Assembly: GCA_035499005.1 (NCBI GenBank)
Contig: DATJZQ010000013.1
Location: forward strand, 12,504-76,503
DNA from: Burkholderiales bacterium
GTDB taxonomy: Bacteria > Pseudomonadota > Gammaproteobacteria > Burkholderiales > SHXO01
Length of the DNA: 64,000 nucleotides
Direction: 5' to 3'
Part shown: positions 170 to 22,762 of the stretch, piece by piece
Numbering within the stretch: the first letter of the stretch is position 1
How the letters are laid out: every line of letters begins with the position of its first letter
The notes under the pieces: generated by a model
Told to the model about the DNA's origin: nothing
Database searches by the model: none
Seen by the model: the letters and a program-made list of their open reading frames with translations, nothing else
Made by a program: the position numbers and the translations under genes

Positions 170-191
170 GGCCGCTCGCCTACCCGCAGAA

Positions 192-3838: not shown

Positions 3839-3850
3839 GCGGTGGACGCG

Positions 3851-7605: not shown

Positions 7606-7693
7606 CGGGAAATCCCCTTCATTAGTTCGGGTTTAGCGAAGCGAGCGCAATTCTAAAGGCTTTTGCTGGCCTTGGAAACTCGCACCAACCGGC

Positions 7694-9739
7694 TCATGTG
7701 GCGCGCAGCGCCTGCTCCAGCGCGGCCACCTGCTGTATCGGCGGCAGACATTCAACGCCCCGGCATACCCAGGCGTTGACGCCCGCCCGCGCGGGCTTGT
7801 CCATTGCAGCGGGTAGACCGGCGATACCATCGGGCAACGCGATCAACAGGGTCGAAGGTGCGTAGCGCTGCGCCAACCCCGCTTGCTCCTGCCAACGCGC
7901 AAGCTCGCGGGCTTCTCCGCGAAGAATGACGGTAGTCGGCGGCGCAACATGCTCCGCTAGCGCCACGCACAAGGTTGCGAACGCGCTGGGCTGTTCTCGC
8001 ATCTGCCCGGCAAACAAGCGCAGCGTGCGTTCGGCTGCCGTGAGATAGCGCGGCTCCCCAACCAGGTGAGCGAGCCGCTGCAGAGCGAGCGCGGCCATGC
8101 CGTTGCCCGAAGGCGCTGCGCCGTCCGGCCCGGGTTTGGGGCGCAGAATAAGCGCCTCGTGGTCGCGGCTGGTGAAAAAGAAGCCGCCGTCCGCGCGATC
8201 CTCGAAACCCTCGACTAACGCGTCCGCCACCGCGAGCGCGAAGCGCAGATCCTCGGCGCGGAATTCGGCTTGCATCAACTCCAGCGTCGCCGCGAGAAGG
8301 AAGGCGTGATCGTCGAGGTAAGCGTTGAGGTGCGCGCGGTCATCCTTGTAGGTCGCCAGCAGGCGTCCGTCACGCCACAGCGTCGCGCGAAGAAAATCCA
8401 GCGCACGGCGGGCCGACGCGACCCAGTCTTCGCGTCCGAACACACGACCGGCGTGGGCCATCCCCTCGATCATGAGCGCGTTCCACGACGTCAGGATCTT
8501 CTCGTCGCGCCCCGGGCGCACCCGCCGTTCGCGCCCTGCGAACAGCTTTGCTCGAGCCCGCGCAAGCAGGCTCTCGGCCGCATTCAACGACAGTCCGAGC
8601 GACGCTGCAGTCTGCTCCAGCGGCTGTGCGATATACAGATGCCAGTGCTCGCCTTCGAAGTTGGGAGCGCGCGTCAAGCCGAAATGCGCGCTCGCCACTA
8701 CGTACTCGTCCTCGTCGAGCACGCGTGCCGCCTCTTCCCGGCTCCACACGTAGTATTTGCCTTCCACGTGCTCCGAGTCGGCGTCGAGCGACGAGTAGTA
8801 GCCGCCTTCCGGCGACTGCATCTCGCGCATCACCCACGCAGCAGTCTGCCCGGTCACACGATGGAACAACTCATCCCGGGTCACGAGCCAGGCATCGGTG
8901 TACAACCGCAGCAGCGGCCCGTTGTCGTACAGCATCTTCTCGAAGTGCGGGATCATCCAGCGCTCGTCCACGCTGTAGCGGCAGAATCCGCCGCCGAGCT
9001 GGTCGTAGATGCCGCCCTCGGCCATCTTGCGCAACGTGACGAGTGCGACCTGGCGTGCGGCCTCATCGGCGTCCAGCACGCCGCGCCTCAAGGCCAAATC
9101 CAGCTCGGCGGGATGCGGAAATTTTGGCGCGCCGCCCAAACCTCCGTGCACCGGATCGAACATGCGCTTGAGCTCGGCCAGCGCAGCTGACATTGGTGCG
9201 CTGTCGAGCACCGCTTGTGTCGAGGGTGCCTGCGGAACCGTTTTCCCCAGCAGAGAAACGAGCTCCGCATTCTGCGCGGCAATCGCCTCGCCCTGTTCTC
9301 GGTAGATCGCGGCCACTCGCTCGAGCAGGTCGCCGAAGCCGGGCAGGTTGTAGCGCGCGGTCTTGGGAAAGTAGGTGCCGCCGAAGAACGGCCGCTGATC
9401 GGGCGTGAGGAACATCGTCAGCGGCCAGCCGCCGCCGCGCCGAGTAAGCATCTGATGAGCGGTCTGGTAGATCTGATCGATGTCGGGCCGCTCCTCCCGA
9501 TCGACCTTGATGCTGACGAACAGGCGATTCATCGTCGCCGCGATGGTCGAGTCTTCGAAGGACTCGTGCGCCATCACGTGACACCAGTGGCACGCGGAGT
9601 AACCGATCGACAACAAGATAGGCTTGTCTTGCTCGCGCGCAAGCCGTAGCGCTTCCTCGCCCCATGGATACCAATCCACGGGGTTGTCCGCATGCTGCTG
9701 CAGATAAGGGCTGGTCTGCTGCGCGAGTCGGTTGGGCAT
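7694..9739 (-). CDS. Thioredoxin-domain protein, YyaL/DUF255 family (N-terminal thioredoxin fold plus six-hairpin domain)
   Basis: Trimmed to [27 protein letters not shown] (ATG 9737-9739). Contains [13 protein letters not shown], typical of the DUF255/SPATA20-like family. Confidence 0.8.
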
Positions 9740-9761
9740 AGTCGACGCAGGTGCTGCCGTG

Positions 9762-11225
9762 TTACAAACCCAATTTGCCCCAGAGCTCATCCACCCGCGC
9801 TTTTACGTGGGGGGCCATCGCGATGACGGTGCCCCACTTGCGCGTAGTCTCTCCCGGCCACTTATTAGTAGCGTCGATGCCCAGCTTCGAGCCCAGGCCC
9901 GACACCGGGCTGGCGAAGTCGAGATAGTCGATCGGCGTGTTGTTCGCGATGATCGTGTCACGCTCGGGGTCGACGCGCGTGCTGAGCGCCCAGATCACTT
10001 CCTTCCAATCGCGCACGTCGACGTCGTCGTCCACCACGACGATGAACTTGGTGTACATGAACTGGCGCAGAAACGACCAGATGCCGAACATGACGCGCTT
10101 GGCGTGCCCGGGATATTGCTTGCGCATGCTCGCGACCGCCAGGCGATAGCTGCAAGCCTCGGGCGGCAGATAGAAGTCCACGATCTCTGGAAATTGCCGG
10201 GTGAGGAGCGGCACGAACACCTCGTTCAGCGCCACACCCAGCACTGCAGGCTCGTCCGGCGGTTTGCCCGTGTACGTGCTGTGATAGATCGGATCGCGCC
10301 GCATGCTGATGCGGTCGATGGTGAAGACCGGAAACTCCTCCTGCTCATTGTAGTAACCGGTGTGATCGCCGAACGGCCCTTCCAGTGCGACCTCGCCGGG
10401 CTGGATGTGCCCTTCCAGTACGATCTCGGCGCTCGCCGGCACCTGCAGCTCGGAACTCAGGCATTTCACCAGCTCGGTGCGCGCGCCGCGCAGAAGTCCC
10501 GCGAACTGGTATTCGCTCAACGTATCGGGTATCGGCGTGACTGCGGCGAGCATTGTCGCGGGATCGGCGCCGAGCGCCGCAGCGACCGCGAACGGCTGGT
10601 CTGGATGAGCGAGGCAATGGTCGCGGAAATCGAGCGCGCCGCCGCGCTGCGGCAGCCAGCGCATGATCACCTTGTTGCGCCCGAGCACCTGCTGGCGATA
10701 GATGCCCAGGTTCTGGCGCGCCTTGTTCGGCCCGCGCGTCACAGTCAGCGCCCAAGTGATGAGCGGGCCTGCGTCGCCTGGCCAGCAGGTCTGGATCGGC
10801 AGCCGCGACAGATCGACGTCGGCGCCTTCCCACACGATCTCCTGGCACGGCGCGCTGGAGCGCTCCTTCGGTGCCATGTCCAGCACCTTCTTCAGCACCG
10901 GCAGCTTGTCCCACGCGTCCTTGAGGCCACGCGGCGGCTCCGGTTCTTTCAGATACGCGAGCAGTTTGCCCACTTCGCGCAGGGCCTCGGCCGATTCCTC
11001 GCCCATGCCCATCGCGACGCGCCTGGGCGTCCCGAACAGATTGGCGAGCACGGGGATGCTGTAGCCCTTGGGCCTTTCGAACAGGATCGCAGGGCCGCCC
11101 TGCTTGAGACATCGATCGCAGATCTCGGTCATCTCGAGATTGGGCGAAACCTCGACCGCTGTGCGCTTGAGCTCGCCGCGCTGCTCGAGCAGACCGATGA
11201 AGGCGCGCAGGTCGTCGTAGCGCAT
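9762..11225 (-). CDS. ubiD: 4-hydroxy-3-polyprenylbenzoate decarboxylase UbiD
   Basis: 487 aa. N-terminus [21 protein letters not shown] and overall length are typical of UbiD. The start shares 1 nt with the SDR stop (TGATG). Confidence 0.9.
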
Positions 11226-11998
11226 CAGATGACCGGATTGGAGCCGCCGTCCATCGGGATGATCGCTCCGGTCACGTAACTCGCTCGATCCGAGGCGAGA
11301 AAAGCGACGACACTAGCGATCTCGTCTGCGCTCGCGTAACGCTGCAGCGGCACGCGGGACTGACCCTGCGTGAGCACCTCGTCTTCCGTCATCTTGCGAG
11401 CGGTTGCTTCGAGGCGCAGCGCTTCCTTGACGCGGTCGGTGAGCGTCGCGCCGGGGTTGACGGCGTTGATACGAATCCCTTTCGGTGCGTACACTTGAGC
11501 GAGGCCCACCGTCGCCAGCATCAGCGCCGAGTTGGCGGCGCCGCCCGGCAGGTGGATCGGGCTGGCGACTTTGCCGCCCATGCCGATCACGTTGACCACG
11601 CAGCCCGCGGCGCGTGATGCCATGTCGGGCAGCACAGCGTCCATCGCGTGGATGTAGGTGAAGTATTTCGCATCCATGGCCGCGTGCCAGGCGCTCGCGT
11701 CGAGATCGTCCGGAAGATAGCGCTTCGCTGCGCCGGCCGAGTTCACCAGGATGTCGATGCCGCCGAGCTTGTCCGTAACCTGGCGCGCCATGTCGCGTGC
11801 AGGCTCAGGGCGCGTCAGGTCGGCTGCAACCCAGAGTGTTGCGCCCGACGCGCCAGCCGCGCGCTCCAGATTCTCGCGGCTGCGCGAGGCGATGGCCACC
11901 TTGGCCCCCTCGGCGAGAAATGCCCGCGCGCAGGCGAGGCCGATGCCCTTGCTGCCGCCGGTGACCAGAACCACTTTGCCTTCCAGTTCGAGCTTCAC
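11225..11998 (-). CDS. SDR-family oxidoreductase
   Basis: 257 aa. Rossmann motif [12 protein letters not shown] motif. Lies between ubiA and ubiD. Confidence 0.8.
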
Positions 11999-12050
11999 TG
12001 TTCTCTCCCGTTGCGTGGACTATAGGTGGCGCCCCTGCGAGTGGCAACCA

Positions 12051-12932
12051 TCAACGCGGCGCAGCAACCAGATACGCCAGCGCGATCCCCCCAAACACCG
12101 CGGCGCCGACCCAATTGTTGTCGTTGAAGGCGCGGAAACAACTACGCGGATCGCGCCCACGGATCAGCGTGTATTGATACAGCACCAGCACGAGCGCGCA
12201 CAACAGCCCGGCGTAGTACGGCCAGCCCAACCCAAGCCACCACCCGATGCTGCACATGAGCCCTAAGAACGCGGCGTGGCACAGCATCACCGCGGCGACA
12301 TCGTAGCGGCCGAACAGGATCGCCGAAGTCCTGATCCCGATCTTGCGGTCGTCCGCGCGATCGACCATCGCGTACTCGGTGTCGTAGGCGATGGTCCAGA
12401 ATATGTTGGCGAGGAGCAGCACCCAGGCGATGACAGGCAGGCTGTTGGTCTGAGCCGCATACGCCATAGGAATGCCGAATCCGAAAGCTACGCCGAGGTA
12501 GGCCTGAGGCAGCGCAAGAAAGCGCTTGGTGAACGGGTAGCTGACAGCGAGAAACAGCCCACAGAAAGACAGCAGCACCACCAGCCGGCCAAGCGGCAGG
12601 ATCAGAACGAATGCAACGAGGGCGAGCAGCGCGGCGAGAATCCACGCCTCTTTCACGCTCACCAGGCCCGCCGCGAGCGGCCGGTTGCGCGTGCGCTCGA
12701 CATGCGGGTCGAAGTTGCGGTCGGCGAAATCGTTCACCGCCACGCCGGCCGAGCGCATGAGCAGCGTGCCCAGCGCAAAGATCCAGACGATGCGCCAGTT
12801 CGGCCGTCCGTCGGCGCTGAGCCACAGCGCCCATAGCGTCGGCCACAGCAGCAGCAGCGTGCCGATGGGCTTGTCCAGGCGCAGCAGCTTTTCGTACAAG
12901 TCCAGCCGCCGCAGGATCGCCGAAACGTTCAT
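12051..12932 (-). CDS. ubiA: 4-hydroxybenzoate polyprenyltransferase UbiA
   Basis: Trimmed to MNVSAILRRLDLYEKLLRLDKPIGTLLLLWPTLWAL (ATG at 12932). UbiA motifs NDFADRNFD and YDTEYAMVDRADD. Confidence 0.85.
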   Translation of the reverse strand: MNVSAILRRLDLYEKLLRLDKPIGTLLLLWPTLWALWLSADGRPNWRIVWIFALGTLLMRSAGVAVNDFADRNFDPHVERTRNRPLAAGLVSVKEAWILAALLALVAFVLILPLGRLVVLLSFCGLFLAVSYPFTKRFLALPQAYLGVAFGFGIPMAYAAQTNSLPVIAWVLLLANIFWTIAYDTEYAMVDRADDRKIGIRTSAILFGRYDVAAVMLCHAAFLGLMCSIGWWLGLGWPYYAGLLCALVLVLYQYTLIRGRDPRSCFRAFNDNNWVGAAVFGGIALAYLVAAPR

Positions 12933-13116
12933 GACTACACCACGAGCCGCCAATGTGCTACGACGCTCAGAAAGCATTGAGTCACATCGTGCGGTAATCC
13001 GCGAACCGAATCTGAAAACGAGTCATCCCGCTTGTCGCAAACAAGTTGGCTACCAAGCGAAAGCTCCTTATCAAGGATTCGGTTTCCCTTGGCGTCGTGG
13101 CGGCTCATTCGAGTGC

Positions 13117-13635
13117 TCAGAGCTTGGCGCGAAGCTGGATGGCAGTCAGGATCCCCTGCAGGATTGCCCTCGGCGTCGGAGGGCAGCCGGGCACTGCGAC
13201 GTCCACCGGAATGACATTCGAGACTCGTCCGCAGCTCGCGTAGCTCTCGCCGAAGATGCCTCCGGTACAGCCGCAGTCGCCAATCGCGACGACGAGCTTG
13301 GGCTCGGGCGTCGCATCGTAGGTACGCTTGAGCGCCGTTTCCATATTCCGCGACACGGGCCCTGTCACGAGCAGCATATCGGCGTGGCGCGGGCTCGCCA
13401 CAAAACGGATGCCGAGGCCCTCGAGATTGTGGTACGGATTGTTGGCCGCGTGTATCTCCAGCTCGCATCCGTTGCACGAGCCCGCATCGACGTGGCGGAT
13501 GGTGAGTGCGCCGGCAAATGAGCGCAGCACGCTGTCTTCCAGCTGCTGCTGCAGCACGCGCAAGCTCTCATCGGCCTCCGGGGGCGACTCGCTCACGATG
13601 CCGCTCTGCGCGATCTTCTTCAGGATCTGATACAC
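13117..13635 (-). CDS. Ehr/hydrogenase-4-like complex, NuoB/HycG/HyfI-type small subunit
   Basis: 172 aa. The [4Fe-4S]-type cysteines are retained in GSCNGCE, GDCGCTGG and PGCPP. Last gene of the six-gene operon. Confidence 0.85.
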   Translation of the reverse strand: MYQILKKIAQSGIVSESPPEADESLRVLQQQLEDSVLRSFAGALTIRHVDAGSCNGCELEIHAANNPYHNLEGLGIRFVASPRHADMLLVTGPVSRNMETALKRTYDATPEPKLVVAIGDCGCTGGIFGESYASCGRVSNVIPVDVAVPGCPPTPRAILQGILTAIQLRAKL

Positions 13636-13648
13636 GTCTGGACCACGC

Positions 13649-15190
13649 TCACAGGTCTACCCCGCTGTAGCTCAGATTGAACGACTTGTTGATGAGCGGA
13701 AAGTCGGGAACGATGTTGTCGATTACCGCGTGTTCGAGCAGCGGCCAGTTCTGCCATGAGGGATCGTGCGGGTGGACGCGCGCCAGCGATCCTCCCGGCC
13801 CCGCTTCCAGCGCAACCAGCACTTCACCGCGCCAGCCTTCGACCCAGCCCAGCCCCACGCTGCCCTCGGCCGGAAGGGGCAGGCTTCCGCGAATCTCGCT
13901 GTGCGGCAGCCGGTCCAGGATCACCCAGCACAGATCGAGCGACTCCAGAATCTCGTCGAAACGCACCGTCACGCGCGCGGCGACGTCGCCGGTGCGATGC
14001 GTCGCCATGCGCACGTCGAGGCTGTCGTACGGTGTGGGCGGGAACTGAGTACGGAGGTCCCAGGACATGCCGCTCGCGCGGCCGGCGAGGCCGCACAAGC
14101 CGAGCCGGTCAGCGAGGTCCGGCGCGACCCGCCCGGCACCGATGAAACGGTCCTGCAGCCCGGGATGCTCGTCGTAGATGACTCTGAGGGAACGGATCGC
14201 CGTGCGCAGCGCGCCGATCTCGGCGCGCATGGCCTGCGCCCCCGCACTGTCGATGTCGCGCGCAACGCCGCCCGGAACGATCGCGTCCATCAGGTAGCGA
14301 TGCCCGAACACCGTGTGGTTGAGCCGCAGCACGTCCTCCTTGAGACGGGAGAACTGCGCGAGTCCGAAGGCGAGACCCGCGTCGTTGCCGAGGAACCCGA
14401 GGTCACCGAGATGGTTGGCGATGCGCTCGCGCTCCAGCAGCAGCGCGCGCAGCCACTGGGCGCGCTCGGGCGGCGTGGCGAACGCCGCGCCTTCGGCCGC
14501 CATGCAGTAGGCCCAGCCGTACGCGACCGTCGAATCTCCGCTCACGCGGCCAGCCAGCCGCGCCGCATCCACGATGCTCATCGACTCGAACAGCTTTTCG
14601 ACGCCCTTGTGCTTGTAGCCGAGGCGTTCTTCGAGGCGCAGCACGCGCTCGCCGACGATCGAGAAACGGAAGTGGCCCGGCTCGATCGTGCCCGCGTGCA
14701 CAGGCCCCACCGGAATCTCGTGCACGCCGTCGCCGCGCACCGCGACAAAGGGGTAGTGCTCCGCCGAGGCCTGATGCATCGCCTTCACGTCAAAGCCCTT
14801 GCGCAACGGAAATTCGTGCTCAGCCCACGCCCCGTGCCGCAGCCATTGCCGAGCATCGCCGCCCTCGGCACGCACACCGAGCAGGTCGAAGGCCGCGCGC
14901 TGCATGCGGTTGGCGGCGGGAAACACGTCGGCGATGCCGGGAAACTCGGGCCGCTGCGCGGAGACAGGCAGCGTCAGCCACACGAGCCCGGAACGGACCG
15001 TAAGCGCCATGTGCACCTCGAAGGCATGACGACCGACGATCTCCGAGGCCCACAACGCGACCAGCCGTCCACCCTTCCCGCGCACCTGTTCGGCGAGCGA
15101 GCGCCATTGAGCGGCATCGACACCACCGCGCCAGACCGGCATGGCGCCGGGCACAGGGCTCAGCTCGACCGGAAAGTCTTCGATCTGCAT
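13649..15190 (-). CDS. Ehr/hydrogenase-4-like complex, NuoC-NuoD fused large subunit (HycE/HyfG-like) lacking Ni-Fe ligands
   Basis: 513 aa. Group-4 large-subunit hallmarks GPVHAGTIEPGHFRF and ERLGYKHKGVEKL are present. The RxCGxC position reads GRVSGDS and the DPCxxC position reads NLSYSG, followed directly by the stop. Confidence 0.85.
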   Translation of the reverse strand: MQIEDFPVELSPVPGAMPVWRGGVDAAQWRSLAEQVRGKGGRLVALWASEIVGRHAFEVHMALTVRSGLVWLTLPVSAQRPEFPGIADVFPAANRMQRAAFDLLGVRAEGGDARQWLRHGAWAEHEFPLRKGFDVKAMHQASAEHYPFVAVRGDGVHEIPVGPVHAGTIEPGHFRFSIVGERVLRLEERLGYKHKGVEKLFESMSIVDAARLAGRVSGDSTVAYGWAYCMAAEGAAFATPPERAQWLRALLLERERIANHLGDLGFLGNDAGLAFGLAQFSRLKEDVLRLNHTVFGHRYLMDAIVPGGVARDIDSAGAQAMRAEIGALRTAIRSLRVIYDEHPGLQDRFIGAGRVAPDLADRLGLCGLAGRASGMSWDLRTQFPPTPYDSLDVRMATHRTGDVAARVTVRFDEILESLDLCWVILDRLPHSEIRGSLPLPAEGSVGLGWVEGWRGEVLVALEAGPGGSLARVHPHDPSWQNWPLLEHAVIDNIVPDFPLINKSFNLSYSGVDL

Positions 15191-15200
15191 ATGGGTGCGG

Positions 15201-16652
15201 TCAGCCGATCATCCGCGCCGCGGCCCGGTACCACTGCGCGAGGTAAGGCGGGATGTAAAGGCCGAGCAGCAAGACCAGCAAGAGGTGCACGAACACCGGC
15301 AACAGCGCCGGCGGATGTGGCAGCCGCTGCGCCGTGCTGTCGCCGAATACCATCGCCTGCACTTTGCTGAAGATCGCTGCGAATCCGACGCCGAGCGCCG
15401 CCAGCAACAGCGGCGTCGCCCACGGCTGTTCTCGCATGGCGGTGGTGAGGATCAGGAACTCGCTGGCGAACACACCGAAGGGCGGAATGCCGAGGATGGC
15501 GATGCTCCCGAGCATCAGGCCCCAGCCGACCGCGGGGCTCACCTGGATCAGCCCGCGGATCTGCGCGATGACCTGCGTCCCGGTCTTCTGCGCTGCATGC
15601 CCGACGGCGAAGAAGATGGCCGATTTGGTCAGCGAGTGCGCGGTCATGTGCAGCAGTCCAGCGAACGACGCGACCGGCCCGCCCATGCCGAAAGCAAACG
15701 TGATGATGCCCATGTGCTCGATCGACGAGTAGGCAAACAGCCGCTTGACGTCGGTCTGGCGAGACAGGAAAAAAGCGGCGACCAGTGCGGACAGCAGGCC
15801 GAAACCCATCATGAGGTTGCCGGCAAGGTGAGAGCCGAGCGCGCCGTCCACCAGCACTTTGTTGCGCACCACCGCGTACAGCGCCACGTTCAGCAGCAGC
15901 CCCGACAACACCGCCGAGATTGGCGTCGGGCCCTCGGCGTGCGCATCCGGCAGCCAGTTGTGCAGCGGCACCAGGCCGACTTTCGTCCCGTAGCCGACGA
16001 GCAGGAAAACGAAGGCGATGGACAACACGTTCGGCTCGAGCTGGTCGCGCACCGCCTGCAGGTGGGTCCACAGCAGCGCGCCGCCCCCCGCACCCAGCAC
16101 TTTCTCGGCCGCCAGGTAGAGCAGGATGGTGCCGAACAGCGCCTGTGCGATGCCCACACCGCACAGGATGAAATACTTCCACGCGGCCTCGATCCCAGCC
16201 GCGGTGCGATACAGGCTCACCAGCAGAACAGTCGTAAGCGTGGCCGCCTCCATCGCCACCCACAGGATCCCCACATTGTTGGTGGTGAGCGCCAGCAGCA
16301 TGGTGAACATGAACATCTGGTACATGCTGTGGTAGAGGCGGAGCCGGCCCGCAGTGAGCTTGCCCCGCTCCTGCTCGACGCGCATGTAGACGCGACCGAA
16401 CAGCGCCGTGGTGAAGCCGACGAAGGCGGTGAGCGCGACCAGAAAAACGTTGAAGGCGTCGACGAAGAACAGCTCGCGCCCGGCTGTCTGCGGTCCCAGG
16501 GAGACGATGCGTGCCGTGAGCGCGAGCGCGGCGAGCAGTGTGAGCAGGCTCACCGAGGCATTCAGCTCCGCCGCCCATGGTCGATGCCCCCGGAGCGCCA
16601 GCAGCAGCGCTCCAGTCAGCGGCAACCCCAGGACCAGCACGATCTCCGTCAC
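15201..16652 (-). CDS. Ehr/hydrogenase-4-like complex, HyfF-like (NuoM/N-type antiporter-like) membrane subunit
   Basis: 483 aa polytopic protein. Proton-antiporter-family segments: WVAMEAATLTTVLLV, VPLHNWLPDAHAEGPTPISAVLSG. GTG start with GTGA overlap on the hyfE-like stop. Confidence 0.85.
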   Translation of the reverse strand: MTEIVLVLGLPLTGALLLALRGHRPWAAELNASVSLLTLLAALALTARIVSLGPQTAGRELFFVDAFNVFLVALTAFVGFTTALFGRVYMRVEQERGKLTAGRLRLYHSMYQMFMFTMLLALTTNNVGILWVAMEAATLTTVLLVSLYRTAAGIEAAWKYFILCGVGIAQALFGTILLYLAAEKVLGAGGGALLWTHLQAVRDQLEPNVLSIAFVFLLVGYGTKVGLVPLHNWLPDAHAEGPTPISAVLSGLLLNVALYAVVRNKVLVDGALGSHLAGNLMMGFGLLSALVAAFFLSRQTDVKRLFAYSSIEHMGIITFAFGMGGPVASFAGLLHMTAHSLTKSAIFFAVGHAAQKTGTQVIAQIRGLIQVSPAVGWGLMLGSIAILGIPPFGVFASEFLILTTAMREQPWATPLLLAALGVGFAAIFSKVQAMVFGDSTAQRLPHPPALLPVFVHLLLVLLLGLYIPPYLAQWYRAAARMIG

Positions 16653-17314
16653 GTCTTTTCCTTCAGCTTCTCGAGGTGATGAATATCCAGGCTGTCGAAC
16701 GTCTCTCGGATCTGGAAGAAGAAGATGCCGAAGATAAAGGCCCCGACCAGCACGTCCAGCGCGATGCCCAGCTCAACCACCATCGGCATGCCGTAAGTGG
16801 CGCTGGTGGCGGCGAAGAACAGGCCATTCTCCATGGCGAGAAAGCCGATCACCTGCGGCACGGCCTTGCGCCGCGTGATCATCATGAGGAACGACAGCAG
16901 CACGCTGGCCATCGCCATCCCGAGTGAGCTGCGCGTGATCGTGCCGGCCAGCTGTGAGATGGGCAGCGCCAGATTGAACGCCACGATCACCAGCAGGATG
17001 CCCACCAGCATGGTGGTCGGGATGTTGATCAAGGTCTCCACGTCCCAGCGGATGTTCAGACGGTCGATTAGGCGGTGCAGCAGCCACGGCAGCGCGAGCA
17101 CCTTGATGCCGAGCGTCAGCGCGGCAGAGAAGTACAAGTGAGGCTGGTGGGTAGCGAAGGCCACCACGGCCGTGTTGACCGACAGCACCAGTCCCTGCAG
17201 CGCGAACAGGTAGATCAGCCGCAGGATGCGTCGCTGCGAGACCATCGCGAAGGCGATCAACAACAGCAGGCACGCCATGAGATTGATGAGCTGGTGCGTC
17301 AAGGGCAGCGTCAT
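16649..17314 (-). CDS. Ehr/hydrogenase-4-like complex, HyfE-like (NuoK-related) membrane subunit
   Basis: Track ORF 16649-18178 trimmed to MTLPLTHQLINLMACLLLL (ATG 17312-17314, ATGA overlap). 221 aa hydrophobic protein with FLAMENGLFF, typical of HyfE. Confidence 0.8.
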   Translation of the reverse strand: MTLPLTHQLINLMACLLLLIAFAMVSQRRILRLIYLFALQGLVLSVNTAVVAFATHQPHLYFSAALTLGIKVLALPWLLHRLIDRLNIRWDVETLINIPTTMLVGILLVIVAFNLALPISQLAGTITRSSLGMAMASVLLSFLMMITRRKAVPQVIGFLAMENGLFFAATSATYGMPMVVELGIALDVLVGAFIFGIFFFQIRETFDSLDIHHLEKLKEKT

Positions 17315-18264
17315 CCCGCGCTCCCGAGCAGCAGCCGCGTCAGCATCCCCAGCACAGCGAGCAGGAACGCCATGCCCAGGAATTCGGGCACGCGGAAGAT
17401 CCGCATCTTCGCCGATACCGTCTCCAGCGCCGCGAGCGCGGCGCCGCCCAGCAGCAGCTTGGCGAGCAGCGCCACCACCGACAGCGGCATCACGCCCCAT
17501 TGTCCCGCGGCGGCGATGCCCCAGGGCAGAAACAGCGCGATCCCGATGCCGGCATAAGTCATCAGTTTGAGCGCATGCGCCCACTCGAGCAGGGCGAGAT
17601 GGCGCGCGGAATACTCCAGGATCAGCGCCTCGTGGATCATGGTGAGCTCCAGATGCGTGGCCGGATTGTCCACCGGGATGCGCGCGTTCTCCGCCAGCAG
17701 GAGCATGACAAAGGCGACTCCCGCAAAGGCAAGGCTCGGGTAGAGGGTAAGCTCGCGATGAGCCAGCGTCTCGACGATGGTGGTGAGCGCGGTGGACTGG
17801 CTGATCAGCGCCGGCGTGAAGAACACCATCAGGAGCGCCGGCTCCGCGAGGCTCGCCACGAACATCTCCCGGCGCGCGCCGAGCGAGCCGAACGCGGTGC
17901 CGACGTCCATGGCCGCCAGCGACATCCACACGCGCGCCAGCGCCAGCAGGCCGACCAGCGCGATGACGTCCGCAGCAGGAGAGAAGGGGAGGTCGGTCGC
18001 CAGCAGCGGAACGATGCTCACCGCCAGCACCATGCAGCCAAACACTGCGTAAGGCGCGAAACGGAACAGCCACGAGGCGTTGTGCGCCACGACCGCGTCC
18101 TTGCGGAACAGCTTCGCGATCACGCGATAGGGCTGCAGCAGACCCGGGCCCGACCTGTTCTGCAGCCATGCACGGCACTGATTGACCCAGCCCACCACGA
18201 GCGGCGCCAGCAGCACCGCCAGCAGCGTCTGGAACAGCTGGGAAGCGAGGAAACCCGGGTTCAT
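17311..18264 (-). CDS. Ehr/hydrogenase-4-like complex, HyfC/HycD-like (NuoH-type) membrane subunit
   Basis: Track ORF 17311-18816 trimmed to MNPGFLASQLFQTLLAVLLAP (ATG 18262-18264, ATGA overlap). 317 aa, NuoH/HycD-like (AENARIPVDNPATHLELTMIHEA). Confidence 0.85.
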   Translation of the reverse strand: MNPGFLASQLFQTLLAVLLAPLVVGWVNQCRAWLQNRSGPGLLQPYRVIAKLFRKDAVVAHNASWLFRFAPYAVFGCMVLAVSIVPLLATDLPFSPAADVIALVGLLALARVWMSLAAMDVGTAFGSLGARREMFVASLAEPALLMVFFTPALISQSTALTTIVETLAHRELTLYPSLAFAGVAFVMLLLAENARIPVDNPATHLELTMIHEALILEYSARHLALLEWAHALKLMTYAGIGIALFLPWGIAAAGQWGVMPLSVVALLAKLLLGGAALAALETVSAKMRIFRVPEFLGMAFLLAVLGMLTRLLLGSAG

Positions 18265-20261
18265 TGGATGAGGAGCAGCAGCACGAGCAGCGTGGCGAAG
18301 CTGTAGATCAGGTACAGGTGGATGCGGCCGTGGTGCACGACGGCGACCAGCGAGGAGACGAATTCCGCAAGCCTGGTCACGGGCACGTAAATCCAGTACC
18401 AGAACCGGTCCTCTATCCTTGATCGGTACAGCGGTTGAGCGTCGAACGGGCTCGGCTGCAGGCGCTCCACCTTGAAGAATGCCTCGAAGATCTGCTTGAC
18501 GGGCTGGCTGAAGCCCTCGGCCGAATCCTGCATGCGGGGCTCGAGCGGACCGAATCCGCAATCCCACGGAGCGGAACGTCGCACGCGCCCGTGATAGAAG
18601 CGCCGCACGAGGACAAACGTAGCGAGCACGGTCAGCACGATGCCGAGCAGGAACAGCGGCGCACTGTAGCTGGCACGTTCGGGCTGCAGCGCGGTCAGGA
18701 ACAACCAGCTCGACCCCTGCGTGGCATCGTGCAGCGTCGCCCCGACCAGCACGCGCGCAATCGGGTCCACCGCGGCGAGCACCAGCGCCGGCAACAGGCC
18801 CAGCACGACGCACCACCCCGCCAGCCAGGCGAGGCCCGCGCGCTCCCAGCGATCGGCGTCATGCGCCTGCGCCAGTTCCTCGCGCGGCAGCCCGAGAAAT
18901 ACCACCCCGTAGAACTTGACCATGACGTAGCCCGCCATCGCCACTGCCAGCGCCAGCGCAGCCGTGGCAACCGGAACCAGCATGCTGAGGTAGCTGCTGG
19001 GCAGGCTGGGCGAGAACAAGAACGCCTGGAACAGCATCCACTCCGAGGCGAAACCATTGAGCGGCGGCAGGCCGGCGATGGCGAGCGCACCGATCAGCCC
19101 CGCTGCCGCAACCCACGGCATGCGGCGAATCAAGCCGCCGAGCTTGCCCAGGCTGCGGTGGCTGGTGGCGTGCATGACCGAACCGGTCACCAGGAACAGC
19201 AGGCTCTTGAACAGCGCGTGGTTGAGGCAGTGATACAGCGTGGCTGCGAGCGCCAGGCCAGCCAACACGTTCATGTCGTAGCTGTGGAACAGGGTTGTCA
19301 GACCGAAGCCGGCCAGGATGACGCCGAGGTTTTCGATGGATGAGTAAGCGAGCAGGCGCTTCATATCGGTCTGCACGGCCGCGAACAGCGCGCCGAACAG
19401 CGCCGTCGCGAGCCCCAGCGACAGCGCTGCGACGCCCCACCACCAGACGCGCGTGTGCAACAGATCGAAGCTCACCCGCAGCAGGCCGTAGATGGCTGTC
19501 TTGAGCATCACGCCGCTCAGGAGCCCGGACACTGGAGAGGGCGCCGCGGGATGCGCCTCGGGCAGCCAGACGTGAACGGGCAGAAACCCGGCCTTGGCGC
19601 CGAAGCCGAACAGGGCCAAAACAAAAGCGATCGAAGCCCATGGCGGCGACAGGGTGTTGCCGCGCATGGCGTCGAATGTGTAGCTCCACTGGCCGAGCTG
19701 CAGCGTCCCGAAGCAGAGCAGGATCGACAGCGCGCCGATGTGCGCGACAATCAAGTAAAGCAGCCCGGCGCTGCGGATCTGCGCGACCCGATGGTCGGTC
19801 GTAACTAGAAAATAGGACGCAACCGCCATCGTTTCCCACGCGACCATGAACAGATACGCGTCGTCGGCGAGCAGCACCACCGCCATGCTGGCGAGGAAGA
19901 CGTGGTACTGCAGACAGATCAGCCGGATGTCGCCGTCGCCGCTCTTCTCGAAGTAGCCCGCGGAGTACAGGGAGACGCCGGTGCTGACCGCGCCGAGCAG
20001 CACCAGGAAGAAGGCCGACAGCGAGTCGAGGCGCACATGAAACGGAAGGTCCGGGAGGCCGAACGGCAAGATGAGAGACTGCGGGTCGGCGCCGAGCGTG
20101 GTGCAGGCAGCCACGGCGAGCACCAGGCCGCCGAGCGCGCCGAGCGGAAAGAATGCGCGTGCGTGCGCACGCCGGCTCGCCTTGGAGGAAAGCCCGAACA
20201 GGCCGACCGCGATCCAGTAGAGCGGCACGGCGAGGACGGCAGCGGCGCTCCAACTAGACAC
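18261..20261 (-). CDS. Ehr/hydrogenase-4-like complex, HyfB/HycC-like (NuoL-type antiporter-like) membrane subunit
   Basis: 666 aa. N-terminal architecture and segments (RLDSLSAFFLVLL, MVAWETMAVASYFLV, LPEAHPAAPSPVSGLLSGVM) match HyfB/HycC. The start at 20261 lies 8 nt inside the recG 3' end. Confidence 0.85.
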   Translation of the reverse strand: MSSWSAAAVLAVPLYWIAVGLFGLSSKASRRAHARAFFPLGALGGLVLAVAACTTLGADPQSLILPFGLPDLPFHVRLDSLSAFFLVLLGAVSTGVSLYSAGYFEKSGDGDIRLICLQYHVFLASMAVVLLADDAYLFMVAWETMAVASYFLVTTDHRVAQIRSAGLLYLIVAHIGALSILLCFGTLQLGQWSYTFDAMRGNTLSPPWASIAFVLALFGFGAKAGFLPVHVWLPEAHPAAPSPVSGLLSGVMLKTAIYGLLRVSFDLLHTRVWWWGVAALSLGLATALFGALFAAVQTDMKRLLAYSSIENLGVILAGFGLTTLFHSYDMNVLAGLALAATLYHCLNHALFKSLLFLVTGSVMHATSHRSLGKLGGLIRRMPWVAAAGLIGALAIAGLPPLNGFASEWMLFQAFLFSPSLPSSYLSMLVPVATAALALAVAMAGYVMVKFYGVVFLGLPREELAQAHDADRWERAGLAWLAGWCVVLGLLPALVLAAVDPIARVLVGATLHDATQGSSWLFLTALQPERASYSAPLFLLGIVLTVLATFVLVRRFYHGRVRRSAPWDCGFGPLEPRMQDSAEGFSQPVKQIFEAFFKVERLQPSPFDAQPLYRSRIEDRFWYWIYVPVTRLAEFVSSLVAVVHHGRIHLYLIYSFATLLVLLLLIQ

Positions 20262-22386
20262 GCAGGTACTCTTGCTTCCCGCCGAGCCAGCGCTGCACGT
20301 GCAGATGCGCCCGCTCCGGCCATTTGCGCAGCATCAAGTCCGCGGCGTCGCGCGCTGCTTCGAGCAGATCCAGGTCACGCTCGAGGTCGGCGAAGCGCAG
20401 CATGGGCAGGCCGCTCTGTCGAGCGCCGAGCAGCTCGCCGGGACCGCGCATGCGCAGATCGTGACGCGCGACCTCGAAGCCGTCCGAGCTTTCGTAGATG
20501 ATGCGCAGCCTCTCGCGCGCCGTGTTCGATAAGGAGTTCTGGTAAAGCAGGATGCATGCGCTGCTGTCTGCGCCCCGGCCCACCCGTCCGCGCAGCTGGT
20601 GCAGCTGTGCGAGGCCCATGCGTTCGGCATTCTCGATCACCATCAGCGACGCGTTGGGCACATCCACGCCGACCTCGATTACTGTCGTGGCCACCAGCAG
20701 CTGTACGGCACCGGATTGGAAAGCCTGCATTACCGCGGCCTTATCGGCGCTGCCGAGCCGACCATGCGCGAGGCCTACGGACAGCTCGGGGAACGTGCGC
20801 TTGATCCGATCGAAAGTGTCGAGAGCGGTCTGCAACAGCAAGGCCTCCGACTGTCTGCGGCCGGACCGGGGCCGCCTTGCCCCGGCCGGATCCACAGAGG
20901 AGATCCCCGCCTCCCCCTCCTCGATGAGCGGGCACACCCAATAGGCCTGGCGTCCCTCGGAACACGCATCGCGCACGCGCGCGATCACTTCGTCGCGGCG
21001 CTTGTCTGACACCAGCTTGGTGATCACCGGGGTGCGCCCCGGCGGCAGCTCGTCGATGACCGACACGTCGAGGTCGGCGTAAAAGCTCATCGCCAGCGTG
21101 CGTGGGATGGGCGTGGCGCTCATCATCAGCTGGTGCGGCTGCCCCGCGTCAGCCGCGCCTTTGCGCCGCAGCGCGAGGCGTTGCAACACGCCGAAGCGAT
21201 GCTGCTCGTCGACGACGGCGAGACCCAGGCGCTTGAAGCGCACCTCGTCCTGGAACAGGGCGTGGGTACCCACCACGATTTTGGTCTCGCCGCGCGCCAG
21301 GCTCTCGAGCTGCGCGCGCTTGTTCCCGCGCCGGACACCTCCAGCCAGCCTGGCGACGTCCAGGCCGAGGGGCGACAACCACTGGGAGAATTTCGCATAG
21401 TGCTGCTCGGCCAGGATTTCGGTGGGCGCCATGACCGCAACCTGGTAGCCGCTTTCGATCGCCTGCAGCGCCGCGAGCGCGGCGACAATGGTCTTGCCGC
21501 TGCCGACGTCGCCTTGCAGCAGCCTCTGCATCGGGTGCGGGCGGGCGAGGTCGGAGCGGATCTCGGCGAGCGTGCGCTGCTGGGCCTTGGTGAGCTTGAA
21601 CGGCAGTTGCGCGAGCAGTTGCCCGGACAGCCGGGCATGCCGGGTAAGGCGCGGTGCGGCAACGGTCTGACGCTTGCGGTAGTGCATCCGCATGGACAGC
21701 TGCTGCGCCAGCAACTCGTCGAACTTGACGCGCTGCCAAGCCGGATGGGTGCGCTCCTCCAGCGCGTCCAGGCGCGCATCCGGCGGCGGGTTGTGCAGGT
21801 ACGCGACGCTCTGCTTTACCGATGGCAGCCGCAGCGGCGCCATGATCTCCGGCGGAAGCGTGTCGGCGAGATCCGCCGCATGCAGCGCGCGTTGCACCAG
21901 ACGGCGCAGAACCGCTTGCGACAGGCCGGCAGTCGTGGGGTAAACCGGCGTCAGCGATTGGGGCAGCGTCTCGTCCGCCCGCAGCACACGCACGCGGGGA
22001 TGAATCATCTCAGCCCCGAAGAAGCCCTTGCGCAGCTCGCCCAGCAACCGCAGCCGCGCGCCCGGAGTGAGCTGCTTGAGGTAACTCGGGTAGAAGTGGA
22101 AGAAGCGCAGCTGTACCGGATCCTCGCCGTCGCGCACCCGGCACACGAGCGTACGCTTCGGCCGATACTGGATCAGGGCCTCCTCCACCTCTGCTTCGAT
22201 CTGCACCGTCTCGCCGGCCGGCGCATCGTGCACACGCACGACCTTGGTTTCATCCTCGTAGCGCAAGGGCAGATGGAAGACGAGATCGAGCTCGCGCCTC
22301 ACCCCGAGGCGGGTCAGCTTCTGCCGGGCGGCCGCCGACGTACCGGCTATTGCCGACGCCGACGTTGCGTCAAGTGCGGCTTTCAC
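20254..22386 (-). CDS. recG: ATP-dependent DNA helicase RecG
   Basis: Wedge-domain motif HLPLRYED, Walker [30 protein letters not shown] chose the GTG start at 22384-22386 because it gives an N-terminal length like E. coli RecG. The track ATG at 22476 would run deep into ridA. Confidence 0.85.
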
Positions 22387-22762
22387 CGACAACGAGTATC
22401 GCGTCGATCTCCACCAGAGCGCCGCGCGGCAGCGCCGCAACCGCGACCGCAGCGCGTGCTGGATAGGGCTGCGCAAAATACTGAGCCATCGCTTCGTTCA
22501 CGCGAGCAAAGTGTCCCATGTCGGTGAGGAACACCGTCACTTTCACGGCGTCATCGAGCGAGGCGCCTGCGGCGGCCGCCACCGCACGCAGATTGCGCAG
22601 CACCTGGTGGATCTGTGCGTCCACGCCTTCGGCGAGCGTCATCGTCGCAGGCTGCAACCCGACCTGGCCGGACAGGTAGACGGCGTCGCCGACGCGCACA
22701 GCCTGCGAATACGTTCCGATCGCCGGCGGAGCGTCGCTGGTGTGGATGGCTTGCCTGGTCAT
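22370..22762 (-). CDS. ridA: RidA/YjgF-family reactive intermediate deaminase
   Basis: Trimmed to [22 protein letters not shown] (ATG at 22762). 130 aa. C-terminal [19 protein letters not shown] is typical of RidA. Confidence 0.85.

Follow-up and report, generated by a model that had tools for sequence, protein, structure and literature searches.

An Ehr-type six-gene operon with a Cys-less hydrogenase-like large subunit in an uncultured betaproteobacterium

Ehr complexes and the operon compared with known systems

Ehr (energy-converting or Ech-hydrogenase-related) complexes are represented by Geobacter sulfurreducens GSU0739-0745 (EhrA, EhrC, EhrL, EhrS and others) and also occur in comammox Nitrospira, ammonia-oxidising archaea and Margulisbacteria, and their function is described as unknown (PMC7894505, PMC6349859, PMC10284858, PMC10432482). 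The remark in a first-pass annotation that the class has no experimentally assigned role agrees with all four papers. The operon described here lies in a 64-kb stretch of DNA, the whole of which we call the window. With Ehr, the Geobacter complex being compared by description, it shares i) a group 4 hydrogenase-like large subunit without CxxC Ni-Fe ligands and ii) a NuoB-like small subunit together with NuoH-, NuoL/M/N- and HyfE-like membrane subunits. It almost certainly encodes an Ehr-type six-subunit complex that arose from a group 4 [NiFe] hydrogenase of the same B-C-E-F-G-(HycF)-I order by losing the Ni-Fe site and then the HycF ferredoxin domain. The Ehr assignment had already been proposed, and subunit-wise Hyf/Hyc homology, the loss of the Ni-Fe ligands and the position in a Cys-less clade all speak for it. 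As annotated, the six hyf/hyc-like reading frames are present and co-directional:

20254..22476, minus strand: recG, directly upstream of ehrB and co-directional (RecG wedge, DEAD, Helicase_C and RecG_dom3_C domains)
18261..20261, minus strand: ehrB, HyfB/HycC/NuoL-type antiporter-like subunit, 666 aa (PF00361 + PF00662)
17311..18264, minus strand: ehrC, HyfC/HycD/NuoH-type subunit, 317 aa (PF00146, E = 4e-35)
16649..17314, minus strand: ehrE, HyfE-like (NuoK-related) membrane subunit, 221 aa (BLASTP to E. coli HyfE, E = 7e-11)
15201..16652, minus strand: ehrF, HyfF/NuoM-type antiporter-like subunit, 483 aa (NCBIfam NF005045)
13649..15190, minus strand: ehrG (EhrL), fused NuoC-NuoD-like large subunit without Ni-Fe site, 513 aa (PF00329 + PF00346)
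13117..13635, minus strand: ehrI (EhrS), NuoB/HycG-type small subunit, 172 aa (PF01058, E = 2.5e-32)
12051-12977, minus strand: ubiA, downstream and co-directional (PF01040; likely start ~15 codons in)
11225-11998, minus strand: SDR gene, downstream and co-directional (adh_short domain)
9762-11225, minus strand: ubiD, downstream and co-directional (UbiD domain)

The Pfam matches (PF00361/PF00662, PF00146, PF00329/PF00346, PF01058) bear out the proposed subunit identities, with ehrE resting on the BLASTP match to HyfE: it has no Pfam match, and its 87.6 bits against the NCBIfam HyfE model fall under the cutoff of 136. Hydrogenase-4 models score well above their cutoffs for ehrB (NF005086 'hydrogenase 4 subunit B', 848 bits, cutoff 667) and ehrF (NF005045 'hydrogenase 4 subunit F', 868 bits, cutoff 543). 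The annotated junctions were re-found, namely 4-nt ATGA or GTGA overlaps at 18261-18264 (ehrB/ehrC, ATGA), 17311-17314 and 16649-16652, and gaps of 10 nt and 13 nt at the remaining two.

At the upstream end, the GTG start of ehrB and the recG stop codon overlap by 8 nt, which leaves no intergenic space for a promoter; no sigma-70-like promoter is predicted between the two genes, and the operon may be co-transcribed with recG. Relatives of the operon have a spacer of 120-260 nt at this position. Downstream, the Ehr-ubiA-(SDR)-ubiD adjacency is kept in 9 genome loci and in L091-L093, and the UbiA homologues are named 4-hydroxybenzoate octaprenyltransferase in the source records. The host clade makes ubiquinone. 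As a pointer to function the adjacency is a weak hint; it is restricted to one sub-clade and may be a historical accident. Across 80 loci no electron-donor gene is conserved near the operon; it is flanked by housekeeping genes, which are metG, apbC and dcd in some lineages and recG and ubiA in the lineage of the window.

Each subunit has its Hyf or Hyc counterpart as best E. coli match (identities: B-HyfB 35%, C-HycD/HyfC 31-36%, E-HyfE 28%, F-HyfF 41%, G-HycE 31%, I-HycG 43%), and the relative order B-C-E-F-G-I is the same. Unlike hydrogenase-4 and hydrogenase-3 (FHL, PDB 7Z0S), the complex has no Ni-Fe ligands, its large subunit has no cleavable C-terminal tail, its small subunit is 172 aa instead of the 252-255 aa in E. 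coli, and HyfA/HycB, HyfD, HyfH/HycF, HyfJ/HycH, HycI, FdhF and HyfR are missing from the window. In sequence, the subunits are far less similar to complex I (T. thermophilus 4HEA, E. coli 7P61) than to Hyc/Hyf. Shared with complex I are a NuoB, a NuoC-D fusion, a NuoH, a NuoK-like and two NuoL/M/N-like subunits, the ligands of an N2-equivalent cluster, an Asp where Nqo4 has D139, the carboxylates of the NuoH loop and the Lys/Glu chain of the antiporter-like subunits. In contrast to complex I, the window has no NuoE/F/G input module, NuoI, NuoA or NuoJ, there are two antiporter-like subunits instead of three, and Ile and Gly replace the quinone ligands His38 and Tyr87. P. furiosus MBS (6U8Y) and MBH (6CFW) are likewise complex I-like relatives of group 4 hydrogenases, but they comprise 13-14 subunits, including an Mrp module and a two-cluster subunit of the NuoI type. 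MBS, whose chain 6U8Y_H matches subunit F best among solved structures, illustrates that a member without H2 chemistry can adopt another redox substrate while ion translocation is kept. Mrp antiporters (6Z16, 7QRU, 7D3U) also combine two antiporter-like subunits carrying a Glu/Lys/His chain with a NuoK-like subunit, and the solved relatives of subunit F include MrpA and MrpD; unlike the complex described here, they have neither NuoB, NuoD and NuoH homologues nor an Fe-S cluster, and the operon lacks MrpB, E, F and G.

The absence of HycF/HyfH, HycB/HyfA, formate dehydrogenase, hyp and hycI genes, claimed in the first-pass annotation for the full 64 kb, was found by three approaches. Pfam scans of ~55 ORFs across the window gave none of these genes; tblastn with E. 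coli HyfA, HyfH, HyfJ, HycB, HycF, HycH and HycI, or NuoI, NuoJ, NuoK and NuoA, gave no match at E <= 0.01 in the window; and a six-frame scan for CxxCxxCxxxC gave none in a real frame.

The former Ni-Fe pocket and the membrane subunits

The best solved relative of ehrG is HycE of 7Z0S (196 bits by sequence, TM 0.61 by fold), and a residue-by-residue comparison with it revealed that other residues (S, S, S, G) occupy the positions of all four Ni-Fe cysteines, in agreement with the proposed ligand loss. The relevant positions are:

14519..14548, minus strand: former L1 Ni-Fe motif, ehrG residues 215-224, RVSGDSTVAY (HycE RVCGICGFAH)
14381..14383, minus strand: D270 of ehrG, equivalent of complex I Nqo4 Asp139 (phmmer alignment to Nqo4 D139)
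13763..13765, minus strand: D476 of ehrG, third clade-specific aspartate (comparison across the Cys-less clade)
13652..13678, minus strand: former L2 Ni-Fe motif, ehrG residues 505-513, NLSYSGVDL (HycE DPCYSCTD)

S217 and S220 stand in place of the L1 cysteines, S507 and G510 in place of those of L2. The former L2 motif is followed by 3 residues, and the protein therefore has no C-terminal extension that a HycI-type protease could remove. The replacements are themselves conserved: NLSYSGVDL is invariant in a 17-sequence alignment and nearly invariant across the Cys-less clade, and conservation of SGD[S/T] and NLSY[S/A]G extends to 74 Cys-less representatives (50% clustering). Besides, three aspartates were gained. 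D219 in the L1 motif is found in 68 of the 74 representatives, at a position that is Val or Ala in hydrogenases. Position 270 is Asp in 64/74, Gly in 15 of 18 sister hydrogenases and Phe in HycE and HyfG; D270 also aligns with the equivalent Asp of E. coli NuoCD (MAFFT), and its counterpart Nqo4 D139 is a quinone-site residue of complex I. Position 476 is Asp in 52/74 and Ser in 16/18 sister hydrogenases. Judged by this conservation, the former Ni-Fe pocket is rebuilt rather than left decaying. The complex I quinone ligands are missing, with I169 for Nqo4 His38 and G218 for Tyr87, and the beta1-beta2 loop (HAGxIEPGHFRF) is of the hydrogenase type, as in Hyf/Hyc.

In ehrB, E143, K223, K254, H344, H348, K352 and E407 do not vary among 61 orthologues, and neither do E135, K224, N255 and E398 of ehrF among 70; E. 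coli HyfF has the identical pattern (E, K, N, E) to ehrF. For ehrC, K51, K55, R132, E141, D199, E206, E212, E217, Y218, K269 and R288 are common to NuoH, HycD and HyfC, while the TM5-6 loop carries family-specific changes, for instance H204 versus a Glu conserved in these three proteins. ehrE shares K71, E162, E181 and D187 with HyfE. By alignment, the coupling and pumping residues of the NuoH-like, F and B subunits are thus intact.

The small subunit, the HycF remnant and the Ehr family

The four proximal [4Fe-4S] cysteines of ehrI, C54, C57, C121 and C151, align with NuoB C63, C64, C129 and C158 and are invariant in 74/74 orthologues. All six genes are under purifying selection (dN/dS = 0.05-0.17); this, together with the invariant cysteines, indicates that the cluster is under selection. 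The small subunit also qualifies the claimed lack of HycF. There is indeed no HycF gene, but an N-terminal piece of this protein survives, fused to ehrI:

13558..13635, minus strand: HycF/HyfH (NuoI-type) N-terminal remnant, ehrI residues 1-26, ferredoxin domain deleted

The remnant, MYQILKKIAQSGIVSESPPE, is set against MFTFIKKVIKTGTATSSYPLE of HycF, and a MAFFT alignment shows the deletion of the ferredoxin domain. A family HMM of ehrI residues 1-50, searched against 2563 proteins, had as top non-family matches the fused HycF-HycG proteins of loci L073 and L027 (E = 4e-4), followed by HycF (E = 0.097) and HyfH, all matching N-terminus to N-terminus. No Fe-S coding capacity was found in 74 gaps between the G and I genes.

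More than 8000 homologues were found, and at least 580 of the 600 stretches listed in a genome scan encode a relative; the family is very common, which makes the operon less surprising. The six genes keep one order in 56/56 complete loci, most of which come from Gallionellaceae, Sulfuricellaceae, Nitrosomonadales and Burkholderiales. In our tree, ehrG falls into a single clade of Cys-less large subunits; this clade includes no true hydrogenase and is itself nested within the true hydrogenases. In L073 and L027 the Cys-less operon stands beside paralogues that are true hydrogenases and have intact CxxC motifs, so that the two types are distinct.

HycF is separate or fused in the sister hydrogenases. 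Within the Cys-less clade, the small subunit of L088 and L089 is fused to a HycF domain that holds either two clusters or one, and L087 and L090, both cut by contig ends, have HycF-type cluster motifs adjoining or fused to it. Lack of the HycF module as an Ehr trait therefore holds for the lineage of the window and fails for these relatives. Unlike these lineages, the betaproteobacterial sub-family is a reduced one-cluster form with the HycF domain cut to a 26-residue stub. Since HycF-type motifs occur in most sampled Cys-less lineages, it can be argued that electrons already passed into or out of the former Ni-Fe pocket in the ancestral Ehr. At the other extreme, a large Methanoregula lineage has replaced all four proximal-cluster cysteines (120/120 clusters) and keeps the Cys-less large subunit with its SGDE and NLSYAG motifs; the scaffold can thus persist without any redox cofactor. 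The Fe-S loss is graded across the clade, from two clusters beyond the proximal one to one, to none and finally to none at all, and, going by these sequences, electron transfer could be dispensable.

Proposed mechanism and competing readings

We tentatively favour, at a probability of about 0.4, a single-cofactor proton-coupled carrier:ubiquinone oxidoreductase that is redox-driven or, in reverse, pmf-driven. Its donor, its use of quinone as acceptor, the direction in which electrons flow and the pumping of protons are inferred. A soluble one-electron carrier, such as a ferredoxin or flavodoxin encoded elsewhere, would dock on the small subunit at the former place of HycF and exchange electrons with the proximal [4Fe-4S] cluster, which in turn would exchange them with ubiquinone in the remodelled pocket between the large, small and NuoH-like subunits. 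Protons would be handled by D219, D270 and D476, and charge changes in the pocket would travel along the TM5-6 loop of the NuoH-like subunit and through HyfE to the antiporter-like F and B subunits, which would then move protons. For such an oxidoreductase speak the selection on the cluster cysteines, the HycF wires in relatives, the rebuilt pocket, the intact pumping residues, the ubiquinone context and the self-contained six-gene module. Against it stand the missing His38/Tyr87 equivalents, the hydrogenase-type loop, the lack of a conserved donor gene in 80 loci, the Methanoregula cluster loss, the stepwise Fe-S loss and the confinement of the ubiA/ubiD adjacency to one sub-clade.

The chief competitor is a redox-independent ion translocator, a hydrogenase-derived, capped, Mrp-like proton/cation transporter or antiporter, which we regard as possible but doubtful. 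Here the acidic pocket would load or gate ions or protons on the cytoplasmic side, and the remaining cluster would be only structural or a redox/O2 sensor. The cluster-free Methanoregula lineage, the progressive cluster loss, the three gained acidic residues, the fully kept antiporter-type charges, the lack of a conserved electron-input partner and the housekeeping context with possible recG co-transcription are in line with it. However, the cluster cysteines are invariant in the family of the window, the extra HycF clusters of most sampled Cys-less lineages are hard to square with an absence of electron flow, MrpB, E, F and G are lacking, and the methanogen lineage may simply have switched function; moreover, we know of no transporter capped by NuoB and NuoD homologues.

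A redox enzyme acting on a non-quinone soluble or membrane substrate at or near the proximal cluster is unlikely. The parallel would be Pyrococcus MBS (formerly MBX), a polysulfide-reducing relative without Ni-Fe. Its chain 6U8Y_L is one of the solved relatives of the large subunit, and 6U8Y_H is the best one for F; many hosts are sulfur or iron lithotrophs (Sulfuricella, Sulfuriferula, Gallionellaceae), and the pocket is polar and not quinone-like. But no sulfur or other substrate-handling gene is conserved beside the operon, many Burkholderiales MAGs of unknown lifestyle carry the family as well, and the large subunit is far nearer to HycE than to MbsL (196 versus 71 bits).

That the complex is still a hydrogenase of the hydrogenase-4 or FHL-like type, with unconventional metal ligands and with partners and maturases elsewhere in the genome, is suggested by the NCBIfam models for B and F and by the JGI name 'Ni,Fe-hydrogenase III large subunit'; the conserved replacement of the four cysteines effectively refutes this very improbable reading, against which also stand the missing maturation extension, the lack of hyp, hycI, FDH, HycB and HycF genes within 64 kb and the separate intact-CxxC paralogues of two loci. 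A decaying, non-functional relic, for which the lost catalytic ligands and ferredoxin domain might be taken, is refuted by the selection on six of six genes, the intact frames with overlaps as in a coupled operon, the constant gene order and the invariant replacement motifs, and hardly deserves consideration.

Returning to the proposed oxidoreductase, hosts whose electron donors are of high potential may benefit from running it in the pmf-driven direction, from quinol to a low-potential carrier. The operon of this uncultured betaproteobacterium joins the widespread, already named Ehr class, and our analysis adds to the first-pass annotation the HycF remnant, the HycF states in relatives and the three aspartates gained in a single Cys-less clade.

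The operon and its genomic setting

Six ORFs spanning 13117-20261, all on the minus strand of the window (G+C ~65%), make up the operon. They had been annotated on a first pass as homologues of Hyf/Hyc subunits, an assignment that was confirmed by Pfam, NCBIfam models and BLASTP.

Genes of the Ehr operon in the window
18261-20261, minus strand: ehrB (subunit B), 666 aa; PF00361 and PF00662; model "hydrogenase 4 subunit B" at 848 bits (cutoff 667)
17311-18264, minus strand: ehrC (subunit C), 317 aa; PF00146
16649-17314, minus strand: ehrE (subunit E), 221 aa; no Pfam match; HyfE model at 87.6 bits, below the cutoff of 136
15201-16652, minus strand: ehrF (subunit F), 483 aa; model "hydrogenase 4 subunit F" at 868 bits (cutoff 543)
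13649-15190, minus strand: ehrG (large subunit G), 513 aa; PF00329 and PF00346
13117-13635, minus strand: ehrI (small subunit I), 172 aa; PF01058

For each subunit, the top E. coli match is the Hyf/Hyc counterpart, well above the Nuo homologue; subunit E matches E. coli HyfE with E = 7e-11 (BLASTP). The tight junctions described earlier are likewise present, with three ATGA/GTGA overlaps of 4 nt and other gaps of 10 and 13 nt. Compared with three relatives, dN/dS ranges from 0.05 to 0.17 in each of the six genes, and we therefore regard all of them as functional. Upstream, the recG stop codon and the GTG start of ehrB overlap by 8 nt (20254-20261), no promoter-like site was predicted between the two genes, and the recG-ehrB spacer measures 120-260 nt in relatives. 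From the gene arrangement, recG and the operon may share a transcript in the window organism.

The first-pass annotation had also stressed what is missing, and within the 64 kb these absences held in Pfam scans, tblastn searches and a six-frame motif scan. Among ~55 window ORFs, Pfam detected housekeeping genes only, including recG, kup, lgt, aroE, mpl, metK, ahcY, metF, dapF, xerC, hslVU and genes for a glucan phosphorylase and a Liv-type ABC transporter. The E. coli proteins HyfA, HyfH, HyfJ, HycB, HycF, HycH and HycI as well as NuoI, NuoJ, NuoK and NuoA had no tblastn match in the 64 kb, a CxxCxxCxxxC motif occurs in no real frame of the window, and neither hyp maturation genes nor a hycI-type endopeptidase are encoded within the 64 kb.

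Elsewhere in the window, a 504-aa ORF (42828-44342, plus strand) combines a Cro/YdaS-like helix-turn-helix (residues 6-58) with a class-V aminotransferase domain (139-410) and represents either an unusual fusion or a start codon called too far upstream. In the methyl-cycle cluster of metF (MTHFR), ahcY and metK (44339-48180, minus strand), the longest MTHFR ORF overlaps ahcY by ~550 nt, so that the true start lies further in. In a 635-aa ORF (34601-36508, minus strand), the match to Pfam UPF0227 is confined to the final 190 residues, and here either the start is placed too far upstream or the N-terminal region is unannotated.

A protein search yielded at least 8000 homologues, the best 120 of which are all at least 66% identical, and a genome scan that sampled one genome per species found at least 600 matching stretches, at least 580 of them encoding a relative. 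The 80 loci kept for comparison stem mostly from Burkholderiales MAGs, Gallionellaceae, Sulfuricellaceae, Sulfuriferula, Sideroxyarcus, Nitrosomonadales and Usitatibacter, and the operon is also present in the cultured strains Sulfuriferula multivorans TTN and Sulfuricella sp. T08. Gene order is B-C-E-F-G-I in all loci long enough for the whole block (56/56). The gap between G and I (n = 74) varies from 0 to 404 nt and encodes an Fe-S motif in no case; a NuoI/HycF-type 2x[4Fe-4S] subunit was found neither in the window nor in these gaps. Betaproteobacterial-type operons, 63-83% identical to that of the window, are also filed under unrelated phyla, in a Gemmatimonadota MAG (L001) and in Streptomycetaceae/Streptomyces MAGs (L013, L037, L058); for these contigs, mis-binning is more likely than horizontal transfer.

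To find a shared partner gene, we clustered the flanking ORFs of the 80 loci. No universal partner emerged among these loci, and the neighbours are lineage-specific housekeeping genes (metG in 24, apbC in 15, dcd in 14, acylphosphatase in 13, recG in 9 and a SulP transporter in 6). Within the clade of the window there is a stable block, RidA-RecG-Ehr-UbiA-(SDR)-UbiD-DUF255-cytochrome c-Liv ABC, and UbiA homologues of 74-76% identity lie in the same RidA-RecG-Ehr-UbiA-UbiD block. Since the ubiA link is stable in this clade and absent from the Nitrosomonadales relatives, it provides weak evidence only. In the window, the stretch directly downstream of the operon (7279-12977) holds, all co-directional, ubiA, SDR and ubiD together with genes for a small cytochrome c (7279-7605) and a thioredoxin-like DUF255 protein (7694-9790), an arrangement conserved in the clade (L091-L093).

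The former Ni-Fe pocket and membership of the Ehr class

By sequence and by fold, the best match of subunit G is HycE of 7Z0S, the large subunit of formate hydrogenlyase (196 bits). In the alignment, RVCGICGFAH of HycE faces RVSGDSTVAY of G and DPCYSCTD faces NLSYSGVD, so that all four Ni-Fe cysteines are replaced (S217, S220, S507, G510), just as the initial reading of the DNA had it. As G ends three residues past the second motif, it offers a maturation protease no C-terminal extension to cleave. The four cysteines are also replaced in 17 close homologues, which are 67-96% identical to the window protein and in which the replacement motifs are invariant, and in 74 Cys-less representatives, a group defined by at most one Cys at the four ligand positions. 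A fold search with G recovered HycE and NuoCD only and no Ehr structure in the PDB. The AlphaFold2 monomer of G has a mean pLDDT of 64.5, with confidence below 50 in the beta1-beta2 loop, at residues 343-405 and at the C-terminus, and is unsuited to pocket analysis.

With respect to complex I, His38 and Tyr87 of T. thermophilus Nqo4 correspond to I169 and G218 of G, which thus lacks the canonical quinone site of complex I. Asp139 of Nqo4 corresponds to D270, a correspondence confirmed when G was aligned independently with E. coli NuoCD in MAFFT. The Cys-less clade shares the motifs SGD[S/T/E/N] and NLSY[S/A]G, and three aspartates set it apart from its sister hydrogenases.

Pocket aspartates in the Cys-less representatives and in sister hydrogenases
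D219: Asp in 68/74 Cys-less representatives; Val or Ala in sister hydrogenases
D270: Asp in 64/74 Cys-less representatives; Gly in 15/18 sister hydrogenases
D476: Asp in 52/74 Cys-less representatives; Ser in 16/18 sister hydrogenases

Judged by these residue frequencies, the three aspartates were gained by the Cys-less clade relative to the sister hydrogenases. The former Ni-Fe pocket has been rebuilt and then conserved, rather than simply abandoned.

These groups come from an exhaustive search of cluster representatives: among the best 150 relatives, those covering the four ligand positions comprise 74 Cys-less proteins and 18 true hydrogenases with intact CxxC. For the representative P0156, the contig did not extend far enough to give a usable gene context. 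The phylogeny that the first-pass annotation had proposed was built as a neighbour-joining tree of 89 sequences, distance-based only and without bootstrap values; the 68 Cys-less leaves, among them the window protein, form one clade without any hydrogenase, nested among true hydrogenases, with HycE and HyfG outside and NuoCD as the outgroup.

The name Ehr reportedly goes back to work by Coppi in 2005, and Marreiros and co-workers are said to have proposed in 2013 that such complexes connect hydrogenases with complex I. Ehr is defined by a group 4 large-subunit homologue without CxxC motifs whose gene lies together with those of small and membrane subunits (PMC6349859, PMC10284858, PMC10432482) and also occurs in Geobacter (PMC7894505). 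The window complex corresponds to this definition and co-encodes a NuoB-like small subunit and complex I/Mrp-like membrane subunits; together with the placement in the tree, this upholds the class originally assigned. With group 4 [NiFe] hydrogenases it shares the PF01058 small subunit with four invariant Cys, PF00146 and PF00361, whereas the cysteines of L1 RxCGxCxxxH and L2 DPCxxC are missing and the HycF-type 2x[4Fe-4S] subunit is reduced to a 26-residue remnant. In contrast to complex I, its NuoD homologue lacks the Tyr87/His38 ligands while retaining the Asp139 equivalent, and neither NuoI nor an electron-input module (NuoEFG/ferredoxin-binding site) is encoded in the window or in related loci. 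From Mrp the operon has only the antiporter-like subunits B and F and the NuoK-related E, and unlike Mrp, which is devoid of a peripheral arm, the complex carries a NuoB/NuoCD/NuoH cap. In defining features it is neither a [NiFe] hydrogenase nor complex I nor Mrp; it belongs to the known and abundant Ehr class and is not a new kind of system.

The HycF remnant, Fe-S loss and the membrane arm

Residues 1-26 of the small subunit (MYQILKKIAQSGIVSESPPE...) align with the N-terminus of HycF/HyfH (MFTFIKKVIKTGTATSSYPLE...), the NuoI-type ferredoxin subunit of hydrogenases, and with fused proteins; thereafter ~100 alignment columns, the ferredoxin domain, are missing before the NuoB-like domain begins. 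With an HMM of family residues 1-50 (2563 proteins), the best matches outside the family were the fusions of two related loci, L073 and L027 (E = 4e-4), followed by HycF (E = 0.097) and HyfH, and every match runs N-terminus to N-terminus. Each statistic is weak alone, but in our view the homology of the remnant is convincing because the positions agree and intermediate forms exist.

Three loci carry a second, paralogous gene set beside the Cys-less operon (L073, 1200-3651; L027, about 1-4425; L080, 11146-13892). The L073 paralogue is a true [NiFe] hydrogenase (RICGVCSVAH, ELCYSCTDR), in which HycF and HycG are fused into a small subunit of 276 aa that carries one CxxCxxC plus CP motif, and the pattern of HMM matches suggests the same fusion in L027. 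In the sister hydrogenase of L086, the order B-C-E-F-G is followed by a separate 128-aa Fer4 gene.

Fe-S motifs in small subunits of Cys-less complexes
L088: small subunit fused to HycF, two cluster motifs
L089: small subunit fused to HycF, one cluster motif
L087, L090: HycF-like start and cluster motif, truncated where the contig ends
Window family: HycF reduced to the 26-residue stub; proximal cluster retained
L085, 2464-2988 (Methanoregula lineage): four proximal-cluster cysteines changed to D, T/A, D/E and N

The replacement of all four cysteines extends to 120/120 clusters of this large methanogen lineage (Methanoregula, P0271-P0390), whose Cys-less complex thus appears, by its motifs, to be without any redox cofactor. 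The Cys-less lineages show every stage of Fe-S loss: two motifs, one, the stub, and none.

In the window family, the proximal [4Fe-4S] cysteines of subunit I (C54, C57, C121, C151) are invariant in 74 orthologues. Subunit F has the exact pattern of E. coli HyfF (E135, K224, N255, E398), E143, K223, K254, H344, H348, K352 and E407 are present in B, and the NuoH-like C retains the loop and channel residues common to NuoH, HycD and HyfC. With these key residues kept, the transport and coupling hardware looks intact; the alignment of HyfE with NuoK proved unreliable and was set aside. In complex I, coupling between the quinone site and the membrane arm runs through the TM5-6 loop. In ehrC (residues 192-227), H204 replaces a Glu of this loop that is conserved in NuoH, HycD and HyfC, and H211, R221, H222 and E227 are further family-invariant changes against the same three proteins.

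Possible function and its meaning for the Ehr family

Our preferred reading, with a probability of roughly 0.4, is that the complex acts as a minimal one-cluster, proton-translocating carrier:ubiquinone oxidoreductase. In this scheme, the site vacated by HycF would receive a soluble one-electron carrier, electrons would pass between this carrier and ubiquinone via the proximal cluster, and C, E, F and B would translocate protons; it may be the reverse reaction, driven by the pmf, that serves lithotrophs. We favour a redox function because strong purifying selection has kept the cluster cysteines invariant and because a multi-cluster wire to the former Ni-Fe pocket persists in most of the Cys-less lineages sampled. 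Besides, this pocket sits exactly at the quinone-binding place of complex I and has acquired the Asp139 equivalent, and the host clade makes ubiquinone and has ubiquinone genes adjoining the operon.

The missing Tyr and His quinone ligands, the lack of a conserved donor gene near the 80 loci, the stepwise loss of clusters across the Cys-less clade and the existence of a large cluster-free lineage support a redox-independent ion translocator, the main rival, which we rate as somewhat less likely than the redox reading. The Ehr scaffold, including the window operon, would then be a new kind of ion machine and no oxidoreductase, built on a membrane arm of hydrogenase descent with the three-aspartate pocket as an acidic site for ion/proton loading or gating, a less likely arrangement in which Fe-S would be dispensable and the clusters would be leftovers lost at different rates, with one remaining in the window lineage and none in Methanoregula. 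By analogy to MBS, a redox enzyme with a non-quinone substrate could also be envisaged and seems quite improbable. An FHL/hydrogenase-4 identity is effectively excluded by the replaced Ni-Fe cysteines, and a pseudogene relic by the dN/dS of 0.05-0.17 and the invariant replacement motifs.

Our literature search found no functional study of any Ehr, and in genome papers on iron oxidisers, Gallionellaceae included, the operon goes unmentioned; to our knowledge, no substrate has ever been measured for an Ehr complex. Its function is described as unknown (PMC6349859, PMC10284858, PMC10432482, PMC7894505), and the only physiological hint is that Ehr subunits of Geobacter are more abundant on formate (PMC7894505). 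Ehr is the least understood branch of the family joining hydrogenases and complex I, and is common in environmentally important lithotrophs, namely iron and sulfur oxidisers in our data and nitrifiers, besides Geobacter, in the literature. New in this work are the remnant of HycF, the graded loss of Fe-S clusters, the grouping of the Cys-less proteins in one clade with three gained aspartates, and the occurrence of the minimal form in cultured lithotrophs. Going by its predicted composition of six subunits and one [4Fe-4S], the betaproteobacterial form is the most stripped-down Ehr still equipped with a redox cofactor, and since it also occurs in cultured strains, it is a practical minimal system. 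The series from separate HycF via fused HycF and stub to no cluster, together with the three gained aspartates, supplies mutable targets. While the existence of the complex will not surprise a specialist, its minimal form bears on the job of Ehr and on what share of the coupling apparatus of complex I can work with a single cluster, and opens a tractable way into a question of long standing.
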